Below are positions 39,801-58,728 of a stretch of 60,938 nt of DNA, in pieces. Positions within the stretch are counted from its first letter, which is position 1. Each line of letters begins with the position of its first letter. The notes beneath the pieces are model-generated. The model saw only the letters and a list, made by a program, of their open reading frames with translations, was not told the origin of the DNA and made no database searches. Position numbers and translations under genes: made by a program. The DNA lies in IMG/VR virus record IMGVR_UViG_3300020362_000267, positions 1 to 60,938 of that record. The stretch is one strand, 5' to 3'. Source of the stretch: a virus. Lineage: Duplodnaviria; Caudoviricetes.

Positions 39801-40295
39801 CCTTGACGTGTCAGGCAAATCCTGATCCGGGGACCGTGGTACGGGAACTATCTGTCCTTCAGGTGTGACCGCGACAGGAGTATTTTTGTTTTTCATGTAT
39901 TTTATGAAGCTTGCAATGCCGTCACTTAAAAGATCCGCTCCTTTAGCGGTGGCTATCTCCCCCAAACCTATAGCACCCCCCACGAGACGTGCATCATCCC
40001 GCATTTTTTGGCGTAACTCTGTGGGGGCTTTGCCAAAAGTTTTCTCCCCCAAAACCTCAGAGCCCGCTATTTTATCTAGACCCTGCATTTGTTGAAGCAT
40101 TAAAATATTTGGTGTGACGGGAGGTAAAGAAGTAGCACCTTCGCCTACTAATCCTGCAATATCAGCAAAACTGCCCACAAGGTCGGGCCCCATTCCTTGC
40201 AAAAGACCTTTGAAAGTCTCTATGCCCTCACCTGTACGGTCGTACCCTTCCGGGTATCTTCGGGACGGCACTAAAGAAAATTTTGATTCAGCCAT
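36876..40295 (-). CDS. Large polyvalent protein: HExxH metallopeptidase-like domain plus ADP-ribosyltransferase-like (ART-PolyVal type) domain
   Basis: HELQHLLQDVEGLPQGG with a downstream GEKVAR. WHG...FDKFD...TGEGANMFGHGIYLS through GIKGTKY...NYVVFD. Confidence 0.7.
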   Translation of the reverse strand: MAESKFSLVPSRRYPEGYDRTGEGIETFKGLLQGMGPDLVGSFADIAGLVGEGATSLPPVTPNILMLQQMQGLDKIAGSEVLGEKTFGKAPTELRQKMRDDARLVGGAIGLGEIATAKGADLLSDGIASFIKYMKNKNTPVAVTPEGQIVPVPRSPDQDLPDTSRTEMMGGEEAARAFPEITKSRELAEKLYKAKEADFANKENVYSLADDIFRETKKQTGFGTGPSIIYDADGKPTVTFYTEFEADLSDINFGTDAPMDSIVHDMYDFFDYGSLEGGNVITYLDNNMGLPTEPGFGKFFDSPLSEHLPSDHPIMQAYGDFINQYELRISETTPNGELGHFNSYDKRITIRADQLNSSDPDQFRSIMIHELQHLLQDVEGLPQGGMGFTLTDYQKISDEFVKRLDEVDRNIRTGLDQGTYNIGNLSQANPQSENGRIYQALNMARDDILSKNNMPINMRSRAMVYPGPMDQGAKLDPNNLAMREEVLARAKEIMANRYQGAIQKQQKVMKALGITENSYDNYFRIMGEKVARSSEEREKLFAEIRELERSQRKATSPAALERIEDRLFELRVRAETAPIGVFAPGGFDMKDVIKEVGPMGVQYPTGKGGIQGMVPKINEAARRRKVETWHGAGTDFDKFDLHYVKTGEGANMFGHGIYLSDLRQVGETYKRNVGFRKELDPFAEEDDLNMTVGRFNLERVTDPETGRPKLFVEDNEELGDLLDELVYGIGADNANTNLAKGFTDYAFDDGKTLRLKNAVHVDEKTGVERDGFEVIGLGPSDGTLMQVAMDINPRTEMIDFYRPMEDQHPAVREKVLAIARKIGDEKLIKEVERGRADGQGVLLSIAKFYGGSSLDDPRISVLLNNNGIKGTKYSTRGTRYDRLDPEADDFNYVVFDAATLEILKKYGFAGTVGIGTGAALTETRPTDQPQEFAKGGHVKAGIAKFIPFMRQGGEVESRANEFAEAVESNFQANLLLDNASPEELIEEFGIEGYAALLHAAGRSQKEGADPNRSSNVYFSLQGNPERQGKLFDLYEDSDMFSPPATAEDHPLLALDVLRGRNTPPKANPAAGPSQELLNLRHLKKLSDRELSKNIKKLKQGEMDIEDVFTNIFKYSGPQMGMAKGGPVKAGIAQFIKHMQ

Positions 40296-41745
40296 AATAT
40301 GCGCGGACCTGAGTATGCTTATCTTCGTCTATGTCCCAATCGTCCGTGGGCAGCGATACAAAGTTACCTTGCCGATAACGCATTAACGCTTGGGTCATGC
40401 TGTCAACAAGGTCATCATACTCCCCATTTGGAAACGCTGCAACTTCTTCAATAAGCTCATCGGCAAAGGTTTCATCAGGGGCATACACCATACCTGCTTC
40501 AAACAAAGGCGAAACCGCATGTACTCTTGAAACCTTGTCATTACCTCGTGACGGAGAAAAATTCACTACAGGAATGCCGATATTGCGTAATTCATGTGTC
40601 AAAGGCATACCAGAGGCTTTTGCCTCGATTATTACTGTTTCAGGCTCCCAGAAGTTGTATTGATCCCAAGCTATCTGTTTTAACTCAGGAAAATCCCACC
40701 GCCCCTTCTTACTGTCCAGCAAAATCAACCCTCTGGGGCCCCCAGCCTCTTCTGGTCGGAATACACCCCAAGTCGTTATTGCAGAATAATCCGCCGTCTC
40801 CTTCTTTGAAAACGCAGTATCATAGCTCTGTATTACATACTCAAGATTGGGCACATCTTCGTTTTCCCATCGTTGCCACCACTCTCGTGGTATGATGGCG
40901 TTTTCTTCGCCCGTGGGCCGTTGTTGGTACTGAGCATTCCATTTCGAGGGCGGGATGGACGCTTTTACCTTTTCTAAATCATCTTTTGACCAAAACTCAG
41001 GCCATGTCGGGTCCCCGTCATCTAACAAAGCAGGCAGCTCAACTATCTCCCACTGGTCCGCTTTAGGGTCTTTATTCATCTGTCGTATGAGTTGCCCGGT
41101 CAAATCCTTCTGAGACCACCGTGTCATAACCAGAATGATAGACCCACCCGGCTGTAGTCTCTGTCGGGGGCCCCCAGTGTACCAATCCCAGGCATCATCA
41201 AAACCGTTATTGGACATTGCAGTCTGTTCAGAGTGCGGGTCGTCAATGATAACAAGGTCACCCCCTCGACCAGCGAGATTAGACCCCACGCCAACAGCAT
41301 AATACGTGCCTCCCCTGGCGGTATCCCAACGACCAGAGGCTTTACTGTCGGCGGAAAGCTTGGCTTCAGGAAATATTTCTGTGTAATCTTCCCTGTCCAA
41401 AAGGTTTTTAACCTTACGACCAAAGCCAACTGCAAGCTCCGTGGTGTGCGTCGCCTGTATTATTTTCATATTCGGATTGCGACCTATAAACCATGCAGGC
41501 AAAAAGTTCGAAGCAAACTCAGACTTCGTATGTCGCGGGGCCATGTTGATAATAAGTCTCTTGAGGGACCCGTCGGCTACCCTTTGAAACTTCTCTGCAA
41601 TGATTTTGTGATGTTCACCTGCTATGAACTCAGGCCACATGGCACGAACAAATGTTAGAAAGTCATTGCGACAAGAATCTATTCGGTCTAGTTGAGCTAA
41701 TCTTAACTGAAGTTTGACTGCTCTATCTCTTGCGTCTTCACTCAT
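40288..41745 (-). CDS. terL: Terminase large subunit
   Basis: RLIINMAPRHTKSE (Walker A-type), LVIIDDPH (Walker B), QSYDTA and DDLVDSMTQAL nuclease motifs. Confidence 0.95.
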   Translation of the reverse strand: MSEDARDRAVKLQLRLAQLDRIDSCRNDFLTFVRAMWPEFIAGEHHKIIAEKFQRVADGSLKRLIINMAPRHTKSEFASNFLPAWFIGRNPNMKIIQATHTTELAVGFGRKVKNLLDREDYTEIFPEAKLSADSKASGRWDTARGGTYYAVGVGSNLAGRGGDLVIIDDPHSEQTAMSNNGFDDAWDWYTGGPRQRLQPGGSIILVMTRWSQKDLTGQLIRQMNKDPKADQWEIVELPALLDDGDPTWPEFWSKDDLEKVKASIPPSKWNAQYQQRPTGEENAIIPREWWQRWENEDVPNLEYVIQSYDTAFSKKETADYSAITTWGVFRPEEAGGPRGLILLDSKKGRWDFPELKQIAWDQYNFWEPETVIIEAKASGMPLTHELRNIGIPVVNFSPSRGNDKVSRVHAVSPLFEAGMVYAPDETFADELIEEVAAFPNGEYDDLVDSMTQALMRYRQGNFVSLPTDDWDIDEDKHTQVRAYYG

Positions 41746-41951
41746 GCCTTTTCTTTCATCTCAACTTCTTCTTTTAATATACATTTTCTTTCAAAAAAGA
41801 TAACGGGAGAAAAGTTCTGTTCAACATTTGATGTCATCTCTTCTAATCGTTGCTCACACCGCTTTAGGGACGTGTAGGGGCCCCACAAATCTCGTATATT
41901 GAAGCACTGTGGGTCTTGTCCTATACACAAAACAATTAAAACGGTAAACAT
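41742..41951 (-). CDS. Small hypothetical protein, first gene of the late operon
   Basis: AAGGAGG Shine-Dalgarno, hydrophobic N-terminus, ATGA overlap with terL. Confidence 0.6.
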   Translation of the reverse strand: MFTVLIVLCIGQDPQCFNIRDLWGPYTSLKRCEQRLEEMTSNVEQNFSPVIFFERKCILKEEVEMKEKA

Positions 41952-42343
41952 CCTAGCCTCCTTTACGGGGTTTCATAGTTATTATATGCGATATTTTATA
42001 TAATGATATCATTTTTTTACCTATTGTTTGTGAAAAACTTGGACTTTGTCGTCGCCGACGCCGCCACCCGCCGTTTTTCGCGTCATTTTTTTGACGGTCA
42101 TTGATTTTATTGAGAAAAATTAAGTCTAGACGGGCCCCGCAACGTTTGCGCTGCGCGACGGTTTTTTGTGCGCGGGCCGTGATTAAGGGCAGCTGGCCCA
42201 CGTTATAACGCTACCAAATACCGAATCACGAGCCACGGATCACGGCTTGTAAGTTTTAAAGCGGGCCAGCCGGTCGAGCTGGGCAAGTTTTATCTGAATA
42301 TACCGGACAAGTGATCCATGCCCTTATAACTTTGAATCTCAGC

Positions 42344-42676
42344 CTGATCAGCGTGTAAACATACGACGATCGATCACGAGCTGGACGAGAATCGAATTAT
42401 TATAGGTTGTATAAACATAAAACCCGTTAAAAACGGGCATTTTGAGTCCGGTGATTGTTTTAATTGAATAAATGAATGACCAAGCGAGCTGGCCAGACTC
42501 ACGTTTAACGCGAATAAGTGTAACTGGCGGGAAAAATCGACGCGCTGCACCTCGAATCTTTTGTGCAGCTCGATCGGATTCAGGGCAAAAACCCGTAAAA
42601 ACTGGCTAAAAACTGCGATTTTCAGGCTGATCAGCGTGTAAACATACGACGATCACCAACGAGCTCAACGAGAATC
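42344..42676 (+). repeat. Direct repeat: 28-bp exact core CTGATCAGCGTGTAAACATACGACGATC (42344-42371, 42627-42654) with a degenerate extension
   Basis: Both copies continue with ACGAGCT..ACGAGAATCG; the region is non-coding. Confidence 0.85.
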
Positions 42677-42708
42677 GCGCAAAATTGGGCCTATTTTTAA
42701 CAAAACAT

Positions 42709-42735
42709 AAAAAAAAGCCCGCCGTATAGGCGGGC
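42709..42735 (-). terminator. Rho-independent terminator after the 254-aa gene
   Basis: GCCCGCC-TATAC-GGCGGGC followed by a T run on the minus strand. Confidence 0.8.
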
Positions 42736-42756
42736 CGGAGTCGTTGATTGTGAGGC

Positions 42757-43521
42757 TTATTTGGGCTTTTTATATTGGCTCGCTTCAACTGAGCTCGCGT
42801 TTGACCTGCCTTGAGATCTTCCCATGTCCCCAGCTATATGATGGCGAATTACGGCTCGCGGGCTGAGCTGGCCCATAAACTGATCGAGCTGCTCCGAATC
42901 GCTAAGCTGCTGATCCGATTCTTTAGTCGCTTCCCATTGCCTGCGTACATTGTGATAAGCAGCATAACATCCGCCCGACTCGTCGAGCTGTCCTGCAGCT
43001 CGCTTGCCAGCTCCATGACCAGAAAAGATCACGGGATAATTACGATCGCCACGTGCACATAACGGTTTACCGTCCCCGCAATCAAGACAACTGAAATTGT
43101 CCAGATATTCGGCTGGACATCTGACAAGAGTCGTCCCGTTAAAATCCCCTGATCTATACGACTTAGATTCGCGCCAAAATGATTCATCAACAATAGACAC
43201 GGCGGGCTGGCCCCGTTTGATCCACCGCACGGCCTGCTGAAAAGAATCAGCAGAAAAGTTAATCACTGTCTTAGCTGGGCTCAGCAGCTCTTTATACCAT
43301 TTTGGATGAAAGTGAGAGTAAGTCATAGATTCACCCGCGCGAGGCTTAGCATTTAACACTGAGGCCATGTAAACCAGATCAGGCATATCTGACCCGCAGC
43401 CGCTAGGATTCAAGCTGCAGCTCTTTGGGCAAGTGTCAAAAACAGACTGATCGCCCGCCCTATATGTCACCGCGCAGCCCTTAGTTTTTTTAGCTTTGCT
43501 TATTTCGACTGTCTTTAACAT
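42757..43521 (-). CDS. Cys-rich GP88/DUF7227-like putative Fe-S protein with rearranged motif order
   Basis: TCPKSC, TYSH, INFSAD, CPAE...CLDC...LC, GHG, CYA and RHHIAGD motifs. Confidence 0.55.
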   Translation of the reverse strand: MLKTVEISKAKKTKGCAVTYRAGDQSVFDTCPKSCSLNPSGCGSDMPDLVYMASVLNAKPRAGESMTYSHFHPKWYKELLSPAKTVINFSADSFQQAVRWIKRGQPAVSIVDESFWRESKSYRSGDFNGTTLVRCPAEYLDNFSCLDCGDGKPLCARGDRNYPVIFSGHGAGKRAAGQLDESGGCYAAYHNVRRQWEATKESDQQLSDSEQLDQFMGQLSPRAVIRHHIAGDMGRSQGRSNASSVEASQYKKPK

Positions 43522-43748
43522 TGCTCAATTCTCCGCCCATACTGGTCGAGCTGCGTGTAAACATTGCCCTGAATCAATTCCACAATATCTGCAGTTTCAT
43601 ATTGATCGGGCTTGTCGTAAACATCGAGCTGCCAAAATTTCCCCGCGTATTCCATCACGACTCCAGTTTCATCACCGTGAATTGGATGTTCATAAAACTT
43701 GCGGCCTGATACTTTAAAAAGCGGTTTAAAGTCTGTTATTTTGTGCAT
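43515..43748 (-). CDS. Small early hypothetical protein
   Basis: Has its own promoter and GGAG Shine-Dalgarno; FYEHPIHGDE motif. Confidence 0.65.
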   Translation of the reverse strand: MHKITDFKPLFKVSGRKFYEHPIHGDETGVVMEYAGKFWQLDVYDKPDQYETADIVELIQGNVYTQLDQYGRRIEQC

Positions 43749-43787
43749 TTTTGAATCTCCATTAATTGCACTGTTTCAATTGATATA

Positions 43788-43816
43788 AGATTAAGCCCAT
43801 ATATGACCCATGTCAA
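43788..43816 (-). promoter_or_regulatory. Sigma70-type early promoter
   Basis: TTGACA-17 nt-TAATCT. Confidence 0.75.
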
Positions 43817-43821
43817 AAAAT

Positions 43822-43851
43822 AAAAAAGCCCGCCAATATAAGCGGGCTTTT
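43822..43851 (-). terminator. Rho-independent terminator after the DUF932 gene
   Basis: AAAAGCCCGC-loop-GCGGGCTTTT with a T tract. Confidence 0.8.
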
Positions 43852-43873
43852 CTGAATGTTTAGGCTGCTGCTG

Positions 43874-45022
43874 TTAAGCTGCTAAGCTGGCCCGACTCAC
43901 GCTGGCCCAGTTGGCGGGGCTCATATTCAAAACATCACCGCCTAGCCGTTGCCAATCGTCGACATGATCAGCTTCTGCATTATTCGCGCAAGCTGTCACA
44001 GCGTTCATAAGGGTTGCACGGCTTATAGGCTGGCCCTGCTCATAGCCTGACTGTCCGATCGTATTTAAAAGCCCGTCAAAAATCGTGCTAGTTTGCTTTT
44101 TTGGAATCGCAAGCACCTTGCCAAGCTGCTCTACCGCGCCCTGCGTGTAAGTCCCTTCTATCACGTCACCTGCAGCAGCTTTCATCTGCTCAAGCACAGC
44201 GTCAAAAGATTCGCGGCTGGCATAGTTGCGGGTGATGTCCCGCAGCTTCAGACCCAATGCTGCATTATCTGCATTTTTTGCTTCATCAGATAGAATGCTC
44301 CATGTGTCATCATCACCACGAGCTGACGTAATGTGCGAGCTGCGCGACCTGTTTTGTGTTTGCATCCCGTTCAAGCAGGCCAGTGTCCAGTTAATCTGAA
44401 AAACTTGAATAGAGCCCTGACCGACTTCAGAATTGCTGATGCCGATTCCCAGTGCCATGATGTCACCGACATTCGCACCTTCGCCCAAAATGGTTTCAGA
44501 TTTGAATCTGGCGTAAAGCCTTTTTTCTGTAATGTCTGCATTTTGGATTTTCCACTGAGCTTCTGATTCCATCAGCTCAGGCAAAACAGTTTCAATGAGG
44601 TGCACATTGTCAAAAGTCTTAAACTTGTCAGAAACAAAAGCCCGGGCAATTCCGAAGCGTTCATCATTCATATGCGTTCTGATCATGCGGGTGACGGGCT
44701 CGTTTTGCCATATGGCGTTGACCAATCCGTCCCACTGCTCAGGATAGCTGCCCTGCAGCCGCCTTGCAGTCCGCACGTCTATTCCAGCACGGGTTGCTAT
44801 CTGGTCAAAAGCAACATCATTTACCTGTAAATGACGGGTTGGTTCACCGCCCTGCCCCTCAAGAATTATGCCAGATATGTTTTTATCTTCTGCATATTCT
44901 GAAGTCTTATAAAAAGCCTGATCGGTTGGTACTAAAAAGTCCTGAGACCTAGCCGCCTGATCCTGCACTTTCCGCATAAGAGCCTGTAATGTGAAGCCTT
45001 CATTTTCAATAGTATGTGTCAT
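43874..45022 (-). CDS. DUF932-like protein
   Basis: RAFVSDKFKTFDN and GIGISNSEVGQGSIQV...LACLNGM motifs. Confidence 0.7.
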   Translation of the reverse strand: MTHTIENEGFTLQALMRKVQDQAARSQDFLVPTDQAFYKTSEYAEDKNISGIILEGQGGEPTRHLQVNDVAFDQIATRAGIDVRTARRLQGSYPEQWDGLVNAIWQNEPVTRMIRTHMNDERFGIARAFVSDKFKTFDNVHLIETVLPELMESEAQWKIQNADITEKRLYARFKSETILGEGANVGDIMALGIGISNSEVGQGSIQVFQINWTLACLNGMQTQNRSRSSHITSARGDDDTWSILSDEAKNADNAALGLKLRDITRNYASRESFDAVLEQMKAAAGDVIEGTYTQGAVEQLGKVLAIPKKQTSTIFDGLLNTIGQSGYEQGQPISRATLMNAVTACANNAEADHVDDWQRLGGDVLNMSPANWASVSRASLAA

Positions 45023-45057
45023 GTGTAAATCTCCATTATGACAGTTGAACTGTAATG

Positions 45058-45086
45058 GTTATAAGCTTTGTCTTATATAGTGTCAA
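45058..45086 (-). promoter_or_regulatory. Sigma70-type early promoter
   Basis: TTGACA-17 nt-TATAAC. Confidence 0.8.
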
Positions 45087-45095
45087 TTGAATTTT

Positions 45096-45128
45096 TAAAA
45101 AAAACCCCTGCCAGAATATGGCAGGGGC
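45096..45128 (-). terminator. Rho-independent terminator
   Basis: CCCCTGCCA-loop-TGGCAGGGG followed by a long T run on the minus strand. Confidence 0.8.
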
Positions 45129-45225
45129 AAAAATCATTTTTTCTTTTTCCATTCATACCGACTTTTTACTTTTTCGATGTCGGAGCTGCCATAGAGCAGC
45201 CAATAATAAAGCTTGGCAAAAATTA

Positions 45226-45714
45226 TCATTCAGCAGCCTCCAGCTCGACCTTTTCATTGTATTCTTCATCGTAATGCTGGCGGGCTTCCTTTGTCACGAT
45301 AAAGCCCTCGCGATTCACATAATGATCGGGATTAGTAAACGTCCACATAACGCCTTCCTCAGTGTCTGTGATGATGACTGACCAAATATGTTTTAAAGCA
45401 CTCATTCTCCATTCGGTTGTCATGTCTGAGATAAACACGTTTTGCATGTCTGCTATTTTGGCAAAAGCTGCACCAAGTGATAGGAAATAGTCCCCGTGAG
45501 AATCCCTTATTTCCTCATAAGGAAATTCTGTAGCTTCAATGACGTTACTTTCAATTGTGAAGTCGTGCCCGTCATCAGTCCGTTTCCATTCAAATTCATC
45601 AGGATTGTAATTTGCCTTTTCAAAAGCCTCTTCTTCACTTTCGGCAATTACAATGGTCTCATATCCAACATCTTTTGTTGCTGATACTAAAAAACTTTTC
45701 ATGTCAGTGCCCAC
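45226..45714 (-). CDS. Early hypothetical acidic protein
   Basis: IAESEEEAFEKA motif common in small phage early proteins; exact start uncertain. Confidence 0.6.
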   Translation of the reverse strand: MGTDMKSFLVSATKDVGYETIVIAESEEEAFEKANYNPDEFEWKRTDDGHDFTIESNVIEATEFPYEEIRDSHGDYFLSLGAAFAKIADMQNVFISDMTTEWRMSALKHIWSVIITDTEEGVMWTFTNPDHYVNREGFIVTKEARQHYDEEYNEKVELEAAE

Positions 45715-45980
45715 CTTTCCCGCAGCTCAGAAATTGCCCTCAACACTTTTCTCATTCGTTCGATTTTATCAAATTCTGCATCATCACTTATGTGCGGAAG
45801 CGAATCGTCTAGAGTGTTATAAATTTTTGTTGGGGATAAGATCCCAATTCCAGAATATTCCCCTTCACCAGTTACATTTTTATCATAAACTTGAAAAATC
45901 TGTTCCAAGTCTTTTATAGCTTTCAGAACATTACAGAGCCTCATTTCATCTGAAGCAACTAAAACTGTTTTATTCATCAC
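45699..45980 (-). CDS. Early hypothetical protein
   Basis: AGGAGG Shine-Dalgarno; operon packing. Confidence 0.55.
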   Translation of the reverse strand: MMNKTVLVASDEMRLCNVLKAIKDLEQIFQVYDKNVTGEGEYSGIGILSPTKIYNTLDDSLPHISDDAEFDKIERMRKVLRAISELRERWALT

Positions 45981-45989
45981 GATGCCTCC

Positions 45990-46286
45990 TTATCTTTTGT
46001 ACCAATACCCTTTTAACACCCCTGTTTTTTCGAGATGCTCTTCGAGCTGCGGCAGCATATCTGAACTGTGATATTTTTTAGGCAAGTCTGCCGCACGACA
46101 GCCAGTAATTTTCGCCACTTTTGTGCGATACTTACGCAGCAGGTGGTAGTGATTTATGACTGCCTCCTCATTGCCCCAGAAATCCACACTGTTCAACGCA
46201 ATCCAAATCATGCAGATTTCAGCATCCTTTTCATTTTGGGGGTCAAAAGCTTTAAGATCTTTCGCCATTTTCTTTCTCCTCTTCAT
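45990..46286 (-). CDS. Early hypothetical protein
   Basis: Operon packing; real start may be the internal MAKD after GGAG. Confidence 0.55.
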   Translation of the reverse strand: MKRRKKMAKDLKAFDPQNEKDAEICMIWIALNSVDFWGNEEAVINHYHLLRKYRTKVAKITGCRAADLPKKYHSSDMLPQLEEHLEKTGVLKGYWYKR

Positions 46287-46452
46287 ATTCTTCTTTTTTC
46301 ATCACATCGACTTCGACTTCACATTTGTGACACCAAAATTCTATTTCATCAGGCAACCAATACTTTTGTCTGTTGTGGAAAGTTTGATTGCTATGCCACT
46401 CATCACTGCCACAACTGGCACAAACATGAGGTGTTTTTTCAAAGCTAAACAT
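46252..46452 (-). CDS. Small zinc-ribbon-like protein
   Basis: CASCG...WCHKC. Confidence 0.55.
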   Translation of the reverse strand: MFSFEKTPHVCASCGSDEWHSNQTFHNRQKYWLPDEIEFWCHKCEVEVDVMKKEEYEEEKENGERS

Positions 46453-46654
46453 TTTGGGTCTCCAAATACCATTCTTTATATTTTTTGTAGGCCAACAGCT
46501 TGTAGGCGTACAAGTCTGCGAACTCCCAATCTGCTATGGGGTCAAAATCATCAAAGAGTGTTTCTATTTCACTCTCCAGCATGACCATCAATGCGTTAGC
46601 CTCTGAGGCCGTTAAGTGGATCAGGGGTTTATTAATTTTCTGTGTTGTTTTCAT
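46445..46654 (-). CDS. Early hypothetical protein
   Basis: GGAGG Shine-Dalgarno; ATGA overlap. Confidence 0.55.
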   Translation of the reverse strand: MKTTQKINKPLIHLTASEANALMVMLESEIETLFDDFDPIADWEFADLYAYKLLAYKKYKEWYLETQNV

Positions 46655-46917
46655 AGTAAACCTCCAGACATATAAGTCATAAAATCATCTTGCTTTGTGA
46701 TGACGCCATCTGAATATTCATAGATGCCATGCAGCTCCATGCCATCACGTTTCTTCTTACAAACGTGGATCATGTCACCATTTTTTAGACTGTCTGGAAA
46801 TACGGAAAGGGTGTGGGCTAAAGCGGGCCCGATGTCAGAAATTTTATTTGCTTTGGAATAAATAGAAAAGCCGCTGCTACGCTGCTTTGGGGTTGCATAC
46901 CAATAAGTCATGCTCAT
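46651..46917 (-). CDS. Early hypothetical protein
   Basis: AAGGAG Shine-Dalgarno downstream of a candidate promoter. Confidence 0.6.
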   Translation of the reverse strand: MSMTYWYATPKQRSSGFSIYSKANKISDIGPALAHTLSVFPDSLKNGDMIHVCKKKRDGMELHGIYEYSDGVITKQDDFMTYMSGGLL

Positions 46918-46943
46918 CTCCTTCAGTTTCTGTTGATAACTAA

Positions 46944-46971
46944 AGGATAAGTCTTATACCACAAATGTCAA
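46944..46971 (-). promoter_or_regulatory. Candidate sigma70-type promoter
   Basis: TTGACA-16 nt-TATCCT. Confidence 0.5.
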
Positions 46972-47379
46972 GTCTAAAAATTCTTGCCAGTTCACCGGAT
47001 TAGAAAATTTAAACTGGGGCTCTAACAACAATCCTCTGTCTACCAGTTCAATCGCTTGTTCCCCGTTATAGACAAAAATGTCTGCATTTTTTGTGTGCAC
47101 AAAAATGTAAGTTGGAGCATGTTTATGCTGGGTCATCCAAGACACTTGATGAGGAGATAGACGGACAGCAAAGCCTTTTGTTGTCTTCAGCTCTACAAAA
47201 TAAAATTTTCCCAGTTCAGAACAAACGACAAGATCAGGAACACCAAGAGAAGCCCAGCTCTCCAGACGGGTGAGTCGGATGTTAGGCCGACACTTCTTCT
47301 GGTGTTTCCGAAATTTCTGATAAAAGCTCGACTCCAGATTTTTCTTCTTCTGGGGTAATGTTGATAATATCATGTCCAT
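46954..47379 (-). CDS. PD-(D/E)xK nuclease, VRR-NUC/Holliday junction resolvase-like
   Basis: GVPDLVV...FVELK...RLSPHQVSW; start uncertain because it overlaps terS. Confidence 0.75.
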   Translation of the reverse strand: MDMILSTLPQKKKNLESSFYQKFRKHQKKCRPNIRLTRLESWASLGVPDLVVCSELGKFYFVELKTTKGFAVRLSPHQVSWMTQHKHAPTYIFVHTKNADIFVYNGEQAIELVDRGLLLEPQFKFSNPVNWQEFLDLTFVV

Positions 47380-47845
47380 GCTGGTCTTTTAATTCCTGCA
47401 AAGCCTTTTCAACTTCTTCACGAGACATGCTGTCAATCGACCCGTGTCTGATTTCAGATTTATTGATGTAAATATTGCCCTGAGCCTGCCCCCTGCGATA
47501 CTCAGCCTGGACGGCTGCAGAGTATGCTCCATTTTCGATAGCCAAATCGCGTATGCGCTGCATGTCACGGACATGACGAGCAAAAGTAATGCCGTACTTT
47601 TCATCCAGCTCTGCCCTATATGCTTTAATGGCGGCTACAACATTTGGATGCATGTTCGGGTTGGTGAGCTCAGAAGCTTTCACATGTGCGGACTTTTCAG
47701 GATAGCCTGCGTTGATAGCTGCCTGACGTTTTGTAATCATACCGTCGTTTGCGACAAACTCTTTCACAAACTTCTCTTGTTTGGGCGTCAAAGGAGTTTC
47801 TATGCTTTTACGAGGTCTACCTCTAGATTTTTTAACAACTTGCAT
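47282..47845 (-). CDS. terS: Terminase small subunit with an N-terminal AT-hook
   Basis: LTPKQEKFVKEF...AAINAGYPEKSAHVKASEL HTH pattern; SRGRPRK. Confidence 0.75.
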   Translation of the reverse strand: MQVVKKSRGRPRKSIETPLTPKQEKFVKEFVANDGMITKRQAAINAGYPEKSAHVKASELTNPNMHPNVVAAIKAYRAELDEKYGITFARHVRDMQRIRDLAIENGAYSAAVQAEYRRGQAQGNIYINKSEIRHGSIDSMSREEVEKALQELKDQHGHDIINITPEEEKSGVELLSEISETPEEVSA

Positions 47846-47912
47846 TGTGGCCCTTTATATAGCTTCCTACCATAAAACTAAATCAAATAAGCTATTTTGG
47901 CAACCAATAGGG

Positions 47913-48176
47913 AAAAAGTTACATGTTACATAAAAAGTTACAAAATTATTTTGGTATATATATGTTATTATTGTAGAAATTACCTGTGTAACATTTTGAT
48001 CATTTGAATCACCTAAAAAAAATGAAAAAAATATTTTTTTGTTAAATCTGTACATATATAAGTTTCACAGCAAACAACCCCTTATCCAGCAAGGGCTGCA
48101 GCGTAACTTTTTTGTGTTTGAAAAGTGTTACAAAAGTTACACCCTGCTCTGGTCATCGCAACAGAACAGGGTGTAA
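47913..48176. other. AT-rich non-coding region with GTTACA iterons and a 15-bp hairpin: candidate replication origin or packaging site
   Basis: GTTACA at 47918, 47925, 47937, 48127 and 48136; inverted copies near 47987 and 48101; stem 48137-48151/48162-48176. Confidence 0.5.
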
Positions 48177-48264
48177 TTGTCAATCAACAGCAGAATGGAG
48201 ATTCGTGCATACATAACCCTAGTCCGTGGGCCGTGCACCGTCAAGTTTTTTCTTCAGCTCGACT

Positions 48265-48337
48265 GTCAAAAAAATGACACGTCAAAAAATTGACGTCAAA
48301 TTATTGACTTGACAATGTATGGGCGTTGTGGTATACT
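48265..48337 (+). promoter_or_regulatory. Near-consensus sigma70 promoter preceded by three tandem 14-bp GTCAA-N4-(T/A)TGAC palindromes
   Basis: TTGACA (48309)-17 nt-TATACT (48332) with an extended TG. Palindromes at 48265, 48281 and 48295. Confidence 0.8.
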
Positions 48338-48414
48338 GTACAATGGAGAATTTTTTAAAATTTCTTCACGCTATTTGACATCGTAAATATCAATCAACAG
48401 CAAAGGAGATCCAT

Positions 48415-49011
48415 GTGACTTGCCTTATGATAGAGCCTGTGTCCAATATGATAGCTAACCATGCTGTCTGTAATTGGCACAGACACAATGACCCGTTGCC
48501 CGATTTACATCTGTCGTTTTGTTATGGTCTGTATGAGTATAACAGATTGGCTGGAGCGGGCATCGGCTGCAAGACCTTGTTAGGTGTTGCTATGGTAGGT
48601 AATCCTTGTGGTAGACCAACGGGCCCGGACCGCAAGCTTATCCTTGAAATTAGAAGGGTATGTTTTAAACCTGGGGTCAAGTTTCATCAGTTGCGTCGTT
48701 ACTACACAGACAAAATTTTTAAAGATGAAATGTCTAAAAGAGTTATGCCTGTATTGGTTCGCAACTTAGACGGGACGCAGCCGTTTGCTCAAGGTAACGC
48801 CATCAATGCTTACACCGTGCCAAGCTTCTTTCTTCGCGTCGCAGAGTTTTATGTAAAACAAAAATTTACAAACATCAAAAAACTGTGGACGTACATACAG
48901 GAGACAGAGGACGGCAGGTATATCAGTGAAGCTGGCTATCACATAGACCATTATGTGAAGAGCCGTGGGCCGCGACACGTCGCAAAGTTACGGTTTGCTA
49001 AAGAACTTTAA
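48415..49011 (+). CDS. XF1762/Mom-like GNAT-fold putative DNA modification protein
   Basis: WHRHN.P, LLGVAMVGNPCGR, LEIRRVC and WTYIQETEDG...AGY motif series. Confidence 0.6.
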   Translation: MTCLMIEPVSNMIANHAVCNWHRHNDPLPDLHLSFCYGLYEYNRLAGAGIGCKTLLGVAMVGNPCGRPTGPDRKLILEIRRVCFKPGVKFHQLRRYYTDKIFKDEMSKRVMPVLVRNLDGTQPFAQGNAINAYTVPSFFLRVAEFYVKQKFTNIKKLWTYIQETEDGRYISEAGYHIDHYVKSRGPRHVAKLRFAKEL

Positions 49012-49016
49012 AAAAG

Positions 49017-49052
49017 AACGACGGGCGATTTATATTTCACCCGTCGTTTTTT
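49017..49052. terminator. Probably bidirectional terminator between convergent genes
   Basis: AACGACGGG...CCCGTCGTT stem with an A run before and a T run after. Confidence 0.7.
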
Positions 49053-49083
49053 ATTTCTTAAACGCGACCAGTCAAAGCGTCGT

Positions 49084-49377
49084 TTAGTGGACCGTTTCAT
49101 CTGGTAGGTCTGCTGCTTTACGTGCAAAGCTGTCTGCGACTGCTATCATTTCGGACACGTTCTCAGGATCAGCGCAGCTTCGATAAGCACATTCGATAAT
49201 TACTGTGAGCAGCCCGACCATGACCAACGGTTCGTGTTGTGCGTCTCCTGCCTTTGTAGCTTTAGAAATTTCTTCAAGAGCATCGACACCCATGTGATAC
49301 CCGTGTTCGAAATCTTTACTGTCACTATCGACTATAAGGCGCACTAATTCGGTCATCCCTGCAGTATCCTGTTCCAA
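49084..49377 (-). CDS. Hypothetical protein
   Basis: Operon packing; start uncertain. Confidence 0.5.
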   Translation of the reverse strand: MEQDTAGMTELVRLIVDSDSKDFEHGYHMGVDALEEISKATKAGDAQHEPLVMVGLLTVIIECAYRSCADPENVSEMIAVADSFARKAADLPDETVH

Positions 49378-49559
49378 TGTTTATTTATTACAGAAACTTC
49401 TTGATGTGCTTCGCGAGTAAACCCACGGTCACGCAGCAAAGTTTGATTATGCAGGTTCACCACCTTTTGAATGGCTTCCATCGACTCATGCCATTGAGGG
49501 CGCAGGCCCTCTACATAACCCGCTTTATTGACCATATCTTTTACGGTTTCATCATCCAT
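49353..49559 (-). CDS. Hypothetical protein
   Basis: Operon packing. Confidence 0.55.
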   Translation of the reverse strand: MDDETVKDMVNKAGYVEGLRPQWHESMEAIQKVVNLHNQTLLRDRGFTREAHQEVSVINKHWNRILQG

Positions 49560-49571
49560 ATGCTTATATTC

Positions 49572-49853
49572 CTATTTTTCAGACTTTTGATCAATTAGTA
49601 TTATTTTATGCATCAAATCACCAAACAGGTCATCAAGCTTTGCAACTGCAGTCATATCCTGATATTTGATATCTTCTTTATTCAAATAACGCAGATGCAA
49701 AGTGGTCAACAAATTTCTGGTGTTTCGCAAAATGTTTAAATCAGTTTCAGTAAAAACCACACCTTGTGGGCGGTCTGACTGTTTAATTACTTCGCCCGCA
49801 ACTTTCAGCTCGACTTTACGAGGGCGACCAGCTTTCTTTTTATCTTCTGTCAT
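49572..49853 (-). CDS. Hypothetical protein with AT-hook-like AGRPRK (likely start MTEDKKK)
   Basis: AAGGAGAACAGAATG ribosome-binding site; ATGA overlap with the upstream gene. Confidence 0.55.
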   Translation of the reverse strand: MTEDKKKAGRPRKVELKVAGEVIKQSDRPQGVVFTETDLNILRNTRNLLTTLHLRYLNKEDIKYQDMTAVAKLDDLFGDLMHKIILIDQKSEK

Positions 49854-50246: not shown

Positions 50247-50462
50247 ATGAACGCCGCAGACATGAGCGTAGAAGAATTTGAAAAGCATCTGGCGGACATG
50301 CGCGACAGGCTTTTCTATTATAAAAATTATAGTAAAGAGACGGGCTCGAAGCGTGATGACCCAAAAAGTAAACGCACCTATCTGACCCAGAAGCGCGGGC
50401 AGGGGTTAGCGAGCGGTTCGCTAAAGCGTCGTAAGCCTATGCGTCATCAGCGTCCATACTAG
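50247..50462 (+). CDS. Small basic hypothetical protein
   Basis: GAGGAG Shine-Dalgarno. Confidence 0.6.
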   Translation: MNAADMSVEEFEKHLADMRDRLFYYKNYSKETGSKRDDPKSKRTYLTQKRGQGLASGSLKRRKPMRHQRPY

Positions 50463-50569
50463 TGCGGTTAATATGTAGATATGTTTGTGTCGATGACCCT
50501 GTACCGGAAGGCTGGACGTTACACAAACTATATGGTCATCATGGTGCAAATGGATATGGAGTAATTACA

Positions 50570-51151
50570 ATGCCTGACAACAGAGAGAAGGATGATTTCT
50601 ATCCAACGCCTCCTGAAGCTACAAAAGCCATGATGTCCCGTTGTCCGTGGTTGAAGTTCCCTGAAGAGGGGAACGAGTATGCCATATGGGAGCCAGCGTG
50701 TGGCGAAGGTCATATGTCAGAAGTTTTTAAAGAAGCAGGGCTGAGCACATACAGCACGGATCTCGTGGACCGTGGGTATGGTGACGCACACGGTGTAGAT
50801 TTTTTAATGGAGCAGAAGAGCTTTGCTCCGTGGATAATTACAAACCCTCCATATAAGCTTGCCAATGAGTTTGTGAAACATGCTTACAAACTCCAGGTTG
50901 AGAATAAGCAGGGCGAGGGGTTTATATTTTTGTTGCGACTAGCATTTCTAGAGGGACAAGCACGGTATAAAGAAATTTTTAAAGATATGCCGCCCAGTAA
51001 AGTGCTAGTGCATACAAAGAGGCTGACCTTGATTCGGGGCGACCACGAAGAATCGTGGTACGGTTCGGGAAAGACAGCTATGGCGTGGTTTGTCTGGGAG
51101 ATAGACCCGTTTACAAAAGAAGGGGCTGCGCCCCGCATTCAATGGTTATAA
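50570..51151 (+). CDS. DNA amino (N6-adenine type) methyltransferase
   Basis: DFYPTPP, IWEPACGEG (SAM binding) and ITNPPY (catalytic). Start placed at MPDN after GGAG; the track extends it to 50462. Confidence 0.85.
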   Translation: MPDNREKDDFYPTPPEATKAMMSRCPWLKFPEEGNEYAIWEPACGEGHMSEVFKEAGLSTYSTDLVDRGYGDAHGVDFLMEQKSFAPWIITNPPYKLANEFVKHAYKLQVENKQGEGFIFLLRLAFLEGQARYKEIFKDMPPSKVLVHTKRLTLIRGDHEESWYGSGKTAMAWFVWEIDPFTKEGAAPRIQWL

Positions 51152-51992: not shown

Positions 51993-53888
51993 CTACATAC
52001 TCTCGCCCCAGTTGTCTCCTATTTCGATATCTGTCTTCATTGGCACTTCTAATTCTATCGCATCACACATAATCTCTGCGATATTCTTTGCGACTTGCTC
52101 ATGTTCTACGCTAAAAGCGAGCTCGTCATGCACCTGCAACAAGGGCAGGCATCCCTCTTTGTACAGGTCTACCATTGCTTTCTTTGTCATATCGGCAGCC
52201 GACGCCTGTATTAAACGGTTTAAAGCTTTGTATGCCTTGGACCGTTGCAAAGGGACAGTGGGCCCATAATGTGCGCGGGCCTCATCATATTTCATGGCCT
52301 TGTGCATACCAAACTTGGTAGGCTCAAAGTCTGGAAATCTACACTTGCGGCCCAACAGGGATCGAATAGAGCCCTCTTCGTTGCCGTTCTGCACACGGTC
52401 TTGCACAACCTTCATAAGCTTTTTAACAAACGGCACTCGCTCATCATATTGCCGTGTCAGCTCTTTTGCTTCTTCGCCTGACAGGTCCAACTGGTCACCC
52501 AGCTTACCAACACCCATGCCGTACATCATCCCTAGATTTATAACTTTTGCTTGCTTGCGCGGTATGTCCGCCATGTCAGCAACCATCGTATGGAAGTCCA
52601 TGTCTGGGTTGTTCTTATAACCGTCAACAAATTCATTGACCTTGGGCATAAGCTTGCCTGTTCGCTTCTGGTACAGAGCTGCAAAGTGTACAAGAATGCG
52701 AGGCTCTTGCTGTGAGTAATCTATCGACGCCCACTTCTCCTCTTCGTTTGGTACAAAAACGGACCTAATCAAAGGTCCTAGTTTTGGATGGCGGGCGGGT
52801 ATCTGTTGAAGATTGGGGTTGTTCATAGAAATTCGTCCCGAAACGGTCCCACCATCATCAGATCTAATCTGGTTTATGTGCCCGTGCACTCTGCCGTCAC
52901 GACCTATGTGCTTCTGCAGCCCGTCGATAAACGTGCCTTTGCTTTTATTAAATTCTCTTGCCAACAGGATCTGCTTTGGCAACGGGTGTTTGTGCGTGTT
53001 TAAAAAGCTTTTGGTAAAAGACGGTGCGTCCTTTGCCGTCCTGGGGTAGTCAAGCTCTAGCTTGTCAAAAGCCTTGGCGATAGAAGCTGCGGCCCATATC
53101 TCCACGTCAAAGCCTACGAGCTTGTGCAACTCCTCTCGCGCTTTCTTCTCTTCTGACAGCATGAACTGGGTTGCCCGCTCCATCGCATCTTGGTCCACCC
53201 GTATGCCCTGCATGGTCATATCAACAAGACAGGGCAATAGGTCCCGTTCAAGCTCGTGAACCGTGGTCAGTTCTTCGCGTTCTATCTGAACTTTAAAAAA
53301 TTTCCACAGCTCCAGTGTAAGCACCGCATCCTGCTCTGCGTATTCACCTACAAAGTTGGCAGGCATACGCCACATTTCGCCCTTGGGGTCAAAGCCAAAC
53401 TCTTTCGCAGCCTCGACCAAGGCACGTTCTGATTTGGTTTTGTTGATATGGTCATACGCAACAGCGTTCAGACTGTAGCTGAAACGGTTTTCATCCAGCA
53501 GCGCAGCCACGACCATTGTATCTATGATGTTGCCATTAACTTCAAAGCCGCTTGCTTTTAGCCAGCCAAGGTCATATTGAGCGTTATGCATGACCTTATC
53601 GGCAGGGCAGGCGAGCACCTTTTTCATATAGTTTCCCACGATTCGCTCGTCCAAGTTGCCCCCACCTTCATGCTTTATAGGCAGGTAGCCCTGCCAGCCG
53701 TCTACAGCGAGGGCAAAGCCGACAATATAACCGTCCTTGCGGGGCCAACCGGGGCCCAGCGTTTTGATGTTTGGGTCACATGTTTCGAGGTCAATCGCTA
53801 TTTCTTTTGCGTCTGTCAGGTCTGGCAGCTCAAAAGGCGGAGCCCACTCAAAACTTTTTAACGGAGACATAAACTCAACTTCATTCAT
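51993..53888 (-). CDS. polA: Family A DNA polymerase with 3'-5' exonuclease
   Basis: IDLET, HNAQYD, YAEQD, DYSQQEPR, RKQAKVINLGMMYG and QVHDEL. Confidence 0.95.
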   Translation of the reverse strand: MNEVEFMSPLKSFEWAPPFELPDLTDAKEIAIDLETCDPNIKTLGPGWPRKDGYIVGFALAVDGWQGYLPIKHEGGGNLDERIVGNYMKKVLACPADKVMHNAQYDLGWLKASGFEVNGNIIDTMVVAALLDENRFSYSLNAVAYDHINKTKSERALVEAAKEFGFDPKGEMWRMPANFVGEYAEQDAVLTLELWKFFKVQIEREELTTVHELERDLLPCLVDMTMQGIRVDQDAMERATQFMLSEEKKAREELHKLVGFDVEIWAAASIAKAFDKLELDYPRTAKDAPSFTKSFLNTHKHPLPKQILLAREFNKSKGTFIDGLQKHIGRDGRVHGHINQIRSDDGGTVSGRISMNNPNLQQIPARHPKLGPLIRSVFVPNEEEKWASIDYSQQEPRILVHFAALYQKRTGKLMPKVNEFVDGYKNNPDMDFHTMVADMADIPRKQAKVINLGMMYGMGVGKLGDQLDLSGEEAKELTRQYDERVPFVKKLMKVVQDRVQNGNEEGSIRSLLGRKCRFPDFEPTKFGMHKAMKYDEARAHYGPTVPLQRSKAYKALNRLIQASAADMTKKAMVDLYKEGCLPLLQVHDELAFSVEHEQVAKNIAEIMCDAIELEVPMKTDIEIGDNWGESM

Positions 53889-54105
53889 TGGTCTCTCCTA
53901 TCTCATACTGTAAACGTGTTAAATAAAACTGTGCTTTGGCAAGGTCCTCAGCAGGGTTGCCCTTGTGCTCGTACCGCCATATGTATTTGATTATCGCGCC
54001 CTGCAGGTAGTATTTGTAGCCCGGACCTAGAGCCGCTTTGATTGCATCAAGGCATTCTACCTTGCCAAGCGTGTAATGCTTGGGGCTGTTAACCATGTCG
54101 CTCAT
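53881..54105 (-). CDS. DUF3310 family protein (T7 gp1.7 nucleotide kinase-like)
   Basis: DMVNSPKHY...ECLDAI...KYIWR...EDLAKAQFYL. Confidence 0.8.
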   Translation of the reverse strand: MSDMVNSPKHYTLGKVECLDAIKAALGPGYKYYLQGAIIKYIWRYEHKGNPAEDLAKAQFYLTRLQYEIGETNE

Positions 54106-57175: not shown

Positions 57176-57195
57176 ATCACCCCCCAAACAAAAGT

Positions 57196-57224
57196 CCTCT
57201 GGTCAGCACACTACTGACCAGAGG
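57196..57224 (-). terminator. Hairpin/attenuating terminator between the SSB-like gene and primase
   Basis: CCTCTGGTCAG/CTGACCAGAGG 11-bp stem followed by ACTTTTGTTT on the minus strand. Confidence 0.6.
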
Positions 57225-57237
57225 TGATGTTATTTGT

Positions 57238-58062
57238 TTAGAATGGTAGATCGCCGTCTGAGTCGTCAGCAGTCTCTCCACGAGATTCTCCAGTATCTTC
57301 AGCAGGTACAGGATCATGCTCATGTTTGACTGTAACTTCACCCTTTTCAATAGAGGCGTTAAACTCTTTCGCCGCTTTATACTGGTGCTTTTCAGATATT
57401 GGGCCATCGAGGCTCATTTCCCAACCGTGCCAACTTCCTTTGCTGTTTTCTTCGCTCACAGTCTTCAAAAGATAAATGTGGCTAAACATCGGCGGCGTGA
57501 AGGGTCCGTTTTCCCCATTCATCTCACGCGACATAATCATGCTCATCCACTTACGAGACTTTTTGAGTTGTGTAGATTTCATTGCAATCAACGCATTGGT
57601 CATGCCGCCCTCTGGGTTTATAACTTTGACATACCACTGAGCTGTCTGCTCAACATAATCACCTGACCCGTCATCGACATATTCTTTATTGTCATTTGGG
57701 TCTCTATTTGTTTTAGGCAAATTTGGGTCATTAGGCTCGTGTATCATTACTGGTGCCGCGATACCCGTGCCTCGTGGTTGCCACCGTATGAACTTACGCT
57801 GATAAGCGCACGGTATAACCTTAATGCCGTCTTTGCCTTTATAGACTTCACCTGTAACAGTATTAACGATATCGCCTTTGCGTACATCGTCACGCTCATC
57901 AAGAATACCGTCCAAGCCAGATACAATTTTCAAGAAAGGCAAAGCCATATCTTCATTAGATACATTCTGGATACCTGCGCTTGCGTCTGCCTCAAACATA
58001 GAAGTGTCGAACTCCGCTACCGCAGTTGCCTGCTCCTTTTTTACAACTTGCTTTTCAGTCAT
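57238..58062 (-). CDS. Putative single-stranded DNA-binding protein (start MTEKQ)
   Basis: Replication module position, acidic tail ending DDSDGDLPF, GGAGG Shine-Dalgarno. The track's extension to 58320 lies within the upstream gene. Confidence 0.65.
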   Translation of the reverse strand: MTEKQVVKKEQATAVAEFDTSMFEADASAGIQNVSNEDMALPFLKIVSGLDGILDERDDVRKGDIVNTVTGEVYKGKDGIKVIPCAYQRKFIRWQPRGTGIAAPVMIHEPNDPNLPKTNRDPNDNKEYVDDGSGDYVEQTAQWYVKVINPEGGMTNALIAMKSTQLKKSRKWMSMIMSREMNGENGPFTPPMFSHIYLLKTVSEENSKGSWHGWEMSLDGPISEKHQYKAAKEFNASIEKGEVTVKHEHDPVPAEDTGESRGETADDSDGDLPF

Positions 58063-58640: not shown

Positions 58641-58678
58641 TTCTTTCTCCTGTCGTCGTTGAGTGTTTATTTAAACAC

Positions 58679-58718
58679 TTGATATATCCTATATAGCCGT
58701 ATATATTTATATAGTCAA
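58679..58718. promoter_or_regulatory. Overlapping divergent promoters for the replication operon and SNF2 gene
   Basis: Plus strand TTGATA-17-TATATT; minus strand TTGACT-17-TATATA. Confidence 0.55.
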
Positions 58719-58728
58719 GGAGATAAAT

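Follow-up and report, generated by a model that had tools for sequence, protein, structure and literature searches.

Among the systems that are built on short DNA words, Chi is spread genome-wide in the host and is not arrayed. Phage lambda has the R sites of cosB and phage T7 has arrays of short repeats beside its terminal repeat, the function of the T7 arrays not being settled. The pac site of coliphage P1 is compact (~160 bp), lies within the gene of the small terminase subunit and depends on methylation. It contains seven hexanucleotide repeats (PMC11260489). The omega/ParB heptads of pSM19035 are a 7-bp word in direct and inverted orientation, present in several copies near promoters, of which at least four contiguous ones are needed (PMC9499535). 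Here we analyse two short words, the heptamer CGAGCTG (CAGCTCG on the opposite strand) and GCTGGCCC, which cluster between the genes of the small (terS) and large (terL) terminase subunits in a tailed phage from a marine metagenome. The genome is a single contig of 60,938 bases, the whole of IMG/VR record IMGVR_UViG_3300020362_000267, and is called the window below. We tentatively propose, at somewhat less than an even chance, that the words are a clade-specific family of sites, which a DNA-binding protein with sequence specificity reads at the early/late-packaging control region.

The TerL protein of the window is ~61% identical to its counterparts in Pelagibacter phage HTVC027P, phage 023Pt_psg01 and phage DSL-LC04, and a megablast of the genome against known phages gave no DNA-level match. 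To our knowledge, nothing is known about late-gene switching or about the choice of DNA for packaging in HTVC023P-type podoviruses. The main text of the published account of this phage family does not mention repeats, palindromes, promoters or terminal repeats, and a full-text literature search for DUF7227, the family of a gene central to the cluster, found no paper. Podoviruses of this type are among the most abundant marine phages (PMC9599517). The present analysis locates a conserved control region ahead of terL, together with lineage-specific repeat words and two candidate readers.

Two words account for the local excess of AGCT

A sequence-only reading of the window had pointed to roughly 30 AGCT sites in less than 4 kb, at 42190-46050. 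The enrichment is real and the count was too low, as the segment holds 42 copies (10.9/kb) and the whole genome 339 (5.56/kb). AGCT itself turned out not to be the unit. Once both words are removed, its density is 6.73/kb in the region vs 5.12/kb elsewhere, so that nearly all the excess comes from the two words. All 13 heptamer positions listed in that reading are present, each within 1 base, and this 6.3% of the genome thus holds 13 of all 18 copies of the heptamer (binomial p 1.7e-12). The genome-wide total of 18 compares with 5.09±2.25 expected and was reached in 0 of 100 dinucleotide shuffles. CAGCTCG is the most enriched among 7860 heptamers in the region and, in an unbiased genome-wide scan, the most clustered one. 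Additionally, all seven genome copies of GCTGGCCC (1.62±1.34 expected) fall within 42192-44036. The heptamer extended on its opposite strand, the 9-mer CAGCTCGAC, has six copies against 0.34±0.57 expected, all within 42273-49814; three are on the minus strand on the left and three on the plus strand on the right, a number too small for a test.

Among the matches within one mismatch of the heptamer, 13 of 32 are exact across 42190-46050 vs 5 of 105 outside, with 9 of 23 exact in 42-44 kb. The flanks of the heptamer carry little information and no longer hidden repeat was found around it; degenerate repeats of 20-35 nt are common to only three or four heptamer sites. A regular site spacing of ~100 bp over 42275-42996 was considered and rejected, as it changes with the choice of one-mismatch variants included in the count and relatives do not share it. 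The density of AGCT peaks in the DUF7227 gene (42757-43521; 13 AGCT, 17/kb), which is the gene at which the sequence-only reading, calling it Fe-S-like, had placed the peak. The copies of the two words, with two outlying 9-mers, are as follows.

42275..42281, plus strand: CGAGCTG word, non-coding; 9-mer CAGCTCGAC on the minus strand
42377..42383, plus strand: CGAGCTG word, non-coding, inside a 72-nt repeat copy
42485..42491, plus strand: CGAGCTG word, non-coding
42566..42572, minus strand: CGAGCTG word, non-coding
42885..42891, plus strand: CGAGCTG word, 3' part of the DUF7227 gene (QLD codons), kept in 10/10 relatives, in a ~40-nt invariant block
42984..42990, plus strand: CGAGCTG word, DUF7227 gene, kept in 11/11 relatives; inverted pair with 42996
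42996..43002, minus strand: CGAGCTG word, kept in 10/11 relatives
43547..43553, plus strand: CGAGCTG word, 77-amino-acid (aa) gene, 26 nt upstream of the DUF7227 start, kept in 4/12
43625..43631, plus strand: CGAGCTG word, 77-aa gene, kept in 10/12
44319..44325, plus strand: CGAGCTG word, DUF932-like gene, kept in 10/12
44336..44342, plus strand: CGAGCTG word, DUF932-like gene, kept in 12/12
45241..45247, minus strand: CGAGCTG word, 15 nt before the stop of the 162-aa gene
46043..46049, plus strand: CGAGCTG word, 98-aa gene
48255..48263, plus strand: outlying CAGCTCGAC 9-mer, abutting a dyad element upstream of the Mom-like gene
49806..49814, plus strand: outlying CAGCTCGAC 9-mer
42192..42199, plus strand: GCTGGCCC word, the sole copy preceded by CA (one of two genomic CAGCTG)
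42263..42270, minus strand: GCTGGCCC word
42867..42874, plus strand: GCTGGCCC word, DUF7227 gene
43206..43213, plus strand: GCTGGCCC word, DUF7227 gene
43886..43893, plus strand: GCTGGCCC word, 12 nt before the stop of the DUF932-like gene
43901..43908, plus strand: GCTGGCCC word near the 3' end of the DUF932-like gene
44029..44036, plus strand: GCTGGCCC word, DUF932-like gene

Codon usage and conservation of the words inside genes

The heptamer occupies frames 0, 1 and 2 of the coding strand as well as non-coding DNA, in agreement with the early remark that the sites fall in both. QL[DE] tripeptides are spelt CAGCTCGA in 5 of 5 cases in the region vs 0 of 11 elsewhere. The check proposed along with that remark, a codon-preserving null, was run as 5000 synonymous shuffles of the six credible genes of 42757-46286 (3216 nt). 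None of the shuffles reached the observed number of AGCT (34 vs 17.0±3.2), of the heptamer (9 vs 1.56±1.08) or of GCTGGCCC (5 vs 0.75±0.76), and the outcome was the same with three doubtful small open reading frames (ORFs) added. A peptide repeat or codon usage as the cause of the cluster was therefore rejected on the evidence of the frames, the QL[DE] spelling and the shuffles. The heptamer had also been described as much rarer in the late arm. It is indeed absent from 3370 to 42274, and part of this rarity is explained by the GC content of third codon positions (GC3), ~0.30 in the late arm vs 0.42-0.55 elsewhere. The split in codon usage is sharp, with the lower value in the structural arm (1-34000) and the higher in 34000-60938 (terminase, portal and early genes).

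Conservation was followed in 11 IMG/VR relatives whose DUF7227 protein is 85-96% identical, three of them nearly identical to each other. The word cluster is retained in these relatives, the two near-complete ones keeping 7/9 and 5/7 copies within ~1.5 kb, and six coding sites are kept in 10-12 of 10-12 sequences. The relatives show new word copies elsewhere, and the window genome has lost a copy at 42852. Third-codon identity inside the heptamers is 0.933, compared with 0.742±0.071 for random coding heptamers (p=0.0006), and inside GCTGGCCC it is 0.932 (p=0.0026). To judge from these comparisons, the two words are kept by selection, even inside genes.

It is improbable in our estimate that the words have no function of their own and are by-products of slippage or short-patch recombination at a hypervariable junction, or a relic of a GC-richer ancestral module. 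Such an origin would suit the distinct codon usage of the 40-60 kb part, the strong enrichment of GC-rich words in the syntenic interval of DSL-LC04, the presence in the region of short, degenerate 17-72-nt repeats, the fast turnover of the non-coding copies and the replacement of 42053-42385 by other sequence in another population. However, the counts exceed what each gene's own codon usage yields, the replication genes of equal or higher GC3 (51993-58320) hold zero heptamer copies, and third positions in the words are conserved beyond background. Moreover, the palindrome CAGCTG is purged inside the region as it is elsewhere in the genome (1 copy vs 6.8 expected), which indicates that the DNA of the region is not a recent import, and its genes are core to the family.

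The terS-terL interval and its array words in related phages

For the family comparison 80 loci were fetched (TerL 77-100% identical), and in 15 clades the whole terS-terL interval was covered. The word cluster of the window sits between terS (47282-47845) and terL (40288-41745), in a conserved interval, and the same placement holds in the 15 clades; the label of early region given to it by the sequence-only reading is a loose one. Nearly all genes of the genome are on the minus strand, and those of the interval and its surroundings are listed below.

47282..47845, minus strand: terS, terminase small subunit (Pfam Terminase_2 7.3e-9; phrog_51)
46954..47379, minus strand: VRR-NUC-like nuclease
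45990..46286, minus strand: p98, orphan small basic protein, homologues confined to GCTGGCCC-rich clades
45699..45980, minus strand: p93, orphan small protein, homologues confined to CAGCTCG-rich clades
45226..45714, minus strand: 162-aa acidic protein
43874..45022, minus strand: DUF932-like protein (phrog_1362; Atlas)
43515..43748, minus strand: 77-aa protein (phrog_11770)
42757..43521, minus strand: DUF7227 Cys-rich protein (Pfam 2.3e-23; invariant Cys)
41742..41951, minus strand: 69-aa gene with a strong ribosome-binding site, first after the control region
40288..41745, minus strand: terL, terminase large subunit, zero copies of either word
48415-49011, plus strand: Mom-like gene (phrog_1384, 2.2e-8)
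50462-51151, plus strand: DNA methyltransferase gene (phrog_799, 2.2e-57)
51993-60183: replication genes

The genes of terS, VRR-NUC, DUF7227 and the DUF932-like protein are all present in the interval in 15/15 clades, which makes the module core and not recently imported; compared with most clades (loci L023-L095), the window's clade has the DUF7227 and DUF932-like genes (42757-45022) in swapped order. A recent foreign 'moron' insertion was rejected on this ground and on the purge of CAGCTG inside the region.

Nearly every clade carries short repeats in the non-coding region upstream of terL, and the repeated word varies by clade. Relatives with words of the window's family have them in tight tandem arrays with a period of 9-11 bp. 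Clade L033 has four tandem 11-bp CAGCTGGCCCG units and three more, L046 has (CAGCTCGAG)x3 twice together with the 12-bp palindrome CAGCTCGAGCTG, L065 repeats CCAGCAGCTCGCC, and L067 has an array of CAGCTGG. Unrelated words stand at the same spot in L055 (GGTCGCG) and L081 (TGGCCGTGATCC). Cultured and named relatives have 7-bp tandem arrays of heptads, GCTTGRR in HTVC027P (L014, 3993-5240), where one array forms the 3' end of gp32, and CCACGGS in DSL-LC04 (L012, 14546-14832), between terS and terL. Zero copies of the window's heptamer were found in the 8 loci of a clade whose TerL is 86% identical. The spill-over of words into an adjacent gene recurs independently in L067, whose DUF932 homologue holds six CAGCTGG vs 1.03±1.09 expected (0 of 1000 shuffles reach this); the L033 homologue shows no spill-over of its array word (1 vs 0.27).

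The position of the words raises the question of DNA packaging. They could be elements that TerS recognises in a pac or cos site, the site itself lying in the non-coding DNA that precedes terL, like the repeats that flank the P1 and lambda cleavage sites, an account that we regard as unlikely and still worth keeping in view. Without exception, words and arrays are located in the terS-terL interval, even in HTVC027P and 023Pt_psg01, whose terS and terL genes are divergent. The interval holds a set of genes of DNA-maturation-like character (terS, VRR-NUC, DUF932-like and DUF7227) in 15/15 clades, and GC-rich GGGGCCC boxes adjoin the arrays in every clade. Additionally, metagenome contigs that end within 10 kb upstream of terL (loci L016-L095) do so in the first 500 bp in 19/65 cases. 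This pile-up may reflect assembly breaks at a hypervariable, repeat-rich junction or may be a hint of genome ends; the ends lie at many positions, as expected from breaks at a hypervariable spot. In the window a 513-codon frame bridges both contig ends, which shows the assembly to be circular, with no genome end visible. Pac sites spread over 2-4 kb are not known. TerS is 64-72% identical to that of the window in all other clades, and its N-termini, compared by eye and identity, are alike in clades whose array words are unrelated, which makes it a poor candidate for the reader. A conserved TerS would be better matched by the family-wide block at 42023-42040, and the reader of the words is, by this comparison of proteins and arrays, probably not TerS.

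The orientation of the words bears on two further explanations. Sixteen of the 20 word copies share one strand (p=0.012), so that the mRNA carries CAGCUCG or GGGCCAGC at these copies, and of the 14 copies inside genes 13 are located in the 3' half (p=0.0018), several of them 12-55 nt from the stop and preceding terminator-like hairpins. Both biases could point to an RNA role, with the words in minus-strand transcripts being read by an RNA-binding protein or nuclease that affects processing, stability or read-through of the cassettes, or could reflect tolerance of the words by protein tails, which would give the 3' bias equally well. We consider the RNA role to be rather improbable. The fold of the non-coding 42202-42715 (minus strand) is no better than that of shuffles (z=-1.64), Rfam has no family in the word region, no tRNA was found, and the arrays of relatives are made of palindromes, which suit readers of double-stranded DNA. 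Furthermore, GCTGGCCC is antisense to terL in the window (6/7) and sense in L033 and L067 (12/15), a reversal that speaks against the RNA role and for a double-strand reader.

The same reversal counts against a fixed, Chi-like orientation. It is very unlikely, in our view, that the words are oriented, Chi-like or end-protecting signals for a host enzyme of the RecBCD/AddAB type entering from DNA ends made near terS. The strand bias (16:4) would fit, as would the flip in orientation of near-matches at ~46 kb (19 plus and 13 minus in 42-46 kb vs 2 plus and 9 minus in 46-50 kb), and GCTGGCCC begins with the same five bases as the E. coli Chi octamer. Chi does not, however, occur as tandem 9-11-bp arrays, and the family encodes a Pam3 gp33-like protein; its counterpart in DSL-LC04, matched to it by gene order alone, is annotated as a DNA-end-protecting protein.

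The control region upstream of terL

The words of the non-coding DNA fall in a control region that precedes the late operon.

41952..42756, minus strand: non-coding control region, ~800 bp, upstream of the late (terL) operon, with homologous non-coding regions in relatives
42323..42394, no strand assigned: 72-nt direct repeat, copy 1, 82% identity to copy 2
42606..42677, no strand assigned: 72-nt direct repeat, copy 2, 283 nt from copy 1
42023..42040, minus strand: family-wide conserved block AAGTTTTTCACAAACAAT upstream of terL, found in L033, L067, L065, L052 and L038
42074..42099, minus strand: dyad element GTCA-N7-TGAC, 26 nt, 85%
48261..48286, plus strand: second copy of the dyad element, upstream of a strong promoter-like site (48309-48337) and the Mom-like gene
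42716..42736, minus strand: terminator-like hairpin after DUF7227
43822..43853, minus strand: terminator-like hairpin after the DUF932-like gene
45104..45128, minus strand: terminator-like hairpin after the 162-aa gene

The control region, which is best taken as non-coding, holds four heptamers, two GCTGGCCC and a GGGGCCC box, and the ORFs of 82, 58 and 60 aa listed in it are probably not genes. The block AAGTTTTTCACAAACAAT is unique in the genome, stands upstream of terL in distant clades and is promoter-like. The two copies of the dyad element have the same orientation relative to transcription at the late operon and at the Mom-like gene, which suggests one regulator for both. Terminator-like hairpins number 18 vs 7.0±2.8 in shuffles and bound the cassettes that precede the control region.

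Other short sequences recur in this part of the genome. Both copies of the 72-nt repeat contain GATTC, a CAGCTCG-like word, GATCG, GTTTACA and the palindrome CTGATCAG. GGGCCCC/GGGGCCCC has 8 of its 10 copies in terL and just upstream (40185-42132); the GGGCCCC word clusters in the syntenic part of DSL-LC04 (7/8) and adjoins the arrays or the start of terL in other clades. Words of the CCGTGATCC type recur upstream of terL in many clades. Four public runs show microdiversity, and in one of them 42053-42385 is replaced by other sequence. One public run holds a weakly supported joint, 42709->43822 (side 27), which would bring two similar terminators together and delete the 77-aa and DUF7227 genes that lie between them.

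Avoidance of CAGCTG and DNA modification

CAGCTG, the palindrome from which CAGCTCG-type words deviate, occurs twice in the window (20307 and 42190), compared with 18.3±4.0 in shuffles and 23.8 by a Markov estimate. Several relatives are also short of it, and the L026 group is additionally without CAGCTC and GAGCTC. The clades without this purge (L033, L067, L063, L080 and L089) use CAGCTG in their arrays, and those with few or no CAGCTG (the window, L046 and L065) use words of the CAGCTC type; for L046 and L065 the match is merely suggestive because of the small expected counts (1.9 and 2.6). GCTGGCCC is preceded by CA in 12/12 copies of L033 and L067 together and in 1/7 in the window. The words of the window look like non-palindromic variants of the CAGCTGGCCCG unit of relatives. 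One palindrome is purged here and its one-base neighbours accumulate, a clean example that bears on restriction avoidance versus the evolution of cis-elements.

Six-base palindromes are scarce genome-wide (600 vs 952 under a uniform expectation), and the GC-rich ones peak at 42-45 kb (20/94). AGCT (1.17) and TCGA (0.97) are among the few 4-bp palindromes that are not under-represented. GATC is scarce genome-wide (128 vs 186 expected), yet 25 copies lie in 42190-46050; CTGATC has 13 of its 26 copies there.

The sequence-only reading had offered modification targets and restriction decoys as two of three possible roles, with perhaps a link to the Mom-like, methyltransferase or GP88-like genes. 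The analysis turned up no evidence for either role. We give very little credence to the idea that AGCT-core words act as decoys or are targets of the Mom-like protein or the methyltransferase, whose action might gate the binding of a protein in the way that adenine methylation does at P1 pac. The phage does encode both proteins, AGCT and TCGA escape under-representation, and the arrays of relatives consist of 6-bp palindromes. The specificity of the two enzymes cannot be read from their PHROG names and a sub-threshold XF1762-family match, which is all that was obtained for them. A motif for modification should occur genome-wide, with no cause for local clustering. The words here, by contrast, are clustered locally and are not palindromes, and the relation to restriction is the reverse of a decoy, as it is the palindrome CAGCTG that the genome avoids. 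A cluster of cleavable sites would, moreover, be a liability rather than a decoy. The GP88-like gene, which is the DUF7227 gene, is linked to the words by position, and nothing beyond position was found.

A more speculative scenario, which we think has only a slight chance of being right, joins the purge with the control region. An ancestral palindrome CAGCTGGCCCG may have been broken by PvuII-type restriction pressure into CAGCTCG and nnGCTGGCCC and written into neighbouring genes, where the words would mark a loading zone of several kb for a packaging/late-switch complex, read by p93/p98 and possibly gated by the methyltransferase, as P1 pac is by methylation. If true, host restriction would have reshaped the phage's own cis-regulatory code.

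A proposed reading and its candidate readers

The third of the early options, protein-loading sites, fits best, given the exactness of the words, their synonymous conservation and the arrays in relatives. The words with their statistics and conservation, the homologous arrays and the purge of CAGCTG are shown by the data; that a protein reads the words, which protein this may be and what its binding may do is inferred. In the reading that we propose, (T)CGAGCTG(S), giving CAGCTCGAC on the opposite strand, and GCTGGCCC would be a cis-acting family of the podovirus terS-terL control region. Their reader would be a phage-encoded, clade-specific DNA-binding protein, probably dimeric and other than TerS. 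Assembly of the complex would begin on the ~800 bp of non-coding DNA that precede the late operon (the 69-aa gene, terL, portal and onward), with additional sites placed in the less constrained 3' halves of neighbouring genes. It would control the early-to-late switch at the late promoter and the small terminator-bounded cassettes that precede it.

The small proteins p93 and p98 fit better than TerS as candidate readers, as a lead from their distribution. Homologues of p93 are present in only 2 of the 15 clades, those richest in CAGCTCG, and homologues of p98 in only three clades, those richest in GCTGGCCC. A single lineage of the clade that has neither p93 nor p98 (L006/L007/L017) holds zero non-coding copies of the words.

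Several observations weigh against this proposal. The association of p93 and p98 with the words was noticed post hoc, with two independent lineages for each and clades that are not all independent, and L006/L007/L017 keeps seven coding copies. No DNA-binding fold or family was found in any local protein, p93 and p98 included. The spacing of the words in the window (12-900 bp, no tight array) is unusual for operators, and the strand and 3' biases could have the other causes given above. The three near-identical relatives weaken the selection test, and the non-coding heptamer copies are conserved no better than their surroundings (0.806 vs 0.818) and turn over within the clade. Additionally, the conserved blocks at 44336 and 42885 extend beyond the word, so that selection may act on a larger or another unit.

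Two proteins of the word region were also modelled. The predicted structures of DUF7227 (predicted local distance difference test score 58.8) and of the DUF932-like protein (80.3) gave no match to the PDB at E<=0.001, with a weak partial match, of oligonucleotide/oligosaccharide-binding-fold type, to RMI1/RPA. An Atlas look-up for the two proteins returned family names and nothing further.

Occurrence of the phage and other repeats in its genome

The phage stretch, whole or partial, was found in 20 marine DNA sequencing runs from 8 studies, and no RNA run is among the runs listed for it. The divergent region upstream of terS (47915-48136) holds a repeat cluster of AAAGTTAC/GTTACA, and almost all related clades have a GTTACA-type cluster at 4.7-7.6 kb upstream of terL; it probably represents early promoters, operators or an origin. 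Within a 776-aa gene, 6719-7133 holds a cluster of GATTATAA/ATTATAA (5/6 and 7/19 copies), possibly a coding repeat. The sole Rfam match in the genome is a Mu-gpT-DE RNA at 28616-28668 (minus strand; 67.8 bits, gathering score 49).

Comparison with known systems

Chi and the words of the phage are alike in being exact, oriented words of 7-8 nt that are over-represented and tolerated inside genes, and they differ in that the orientation of the phage word is not kept between clades. Lambda cosB and the T7 arrays share with this locus lineage-specific short repeats beside packaging genes or a genome end. For the phage, known from a circular assembly, the genome end is not visible. The likeness to P1 pac lies in short repeated words beside terminase genes and in the phage's own methyltransferase; the difference is that the words of the phage are spread over 2-4 kb, at 1-5 kb from terS. 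The contiguous arrays of relatives, with units of 7, 9 and 11 bp, recall the omega/ParB heptads of pSM19035, whereas the copies in the window are 12-900 bp apart and mostly intragenic, and no ribbon-helix-helix or ParA/ParB gene was found in the phage. The words of the terS-terL interval fall fully under neither definition, and they resemble both heptad operator/centromere arrays and repeat-flanked packaging sites.

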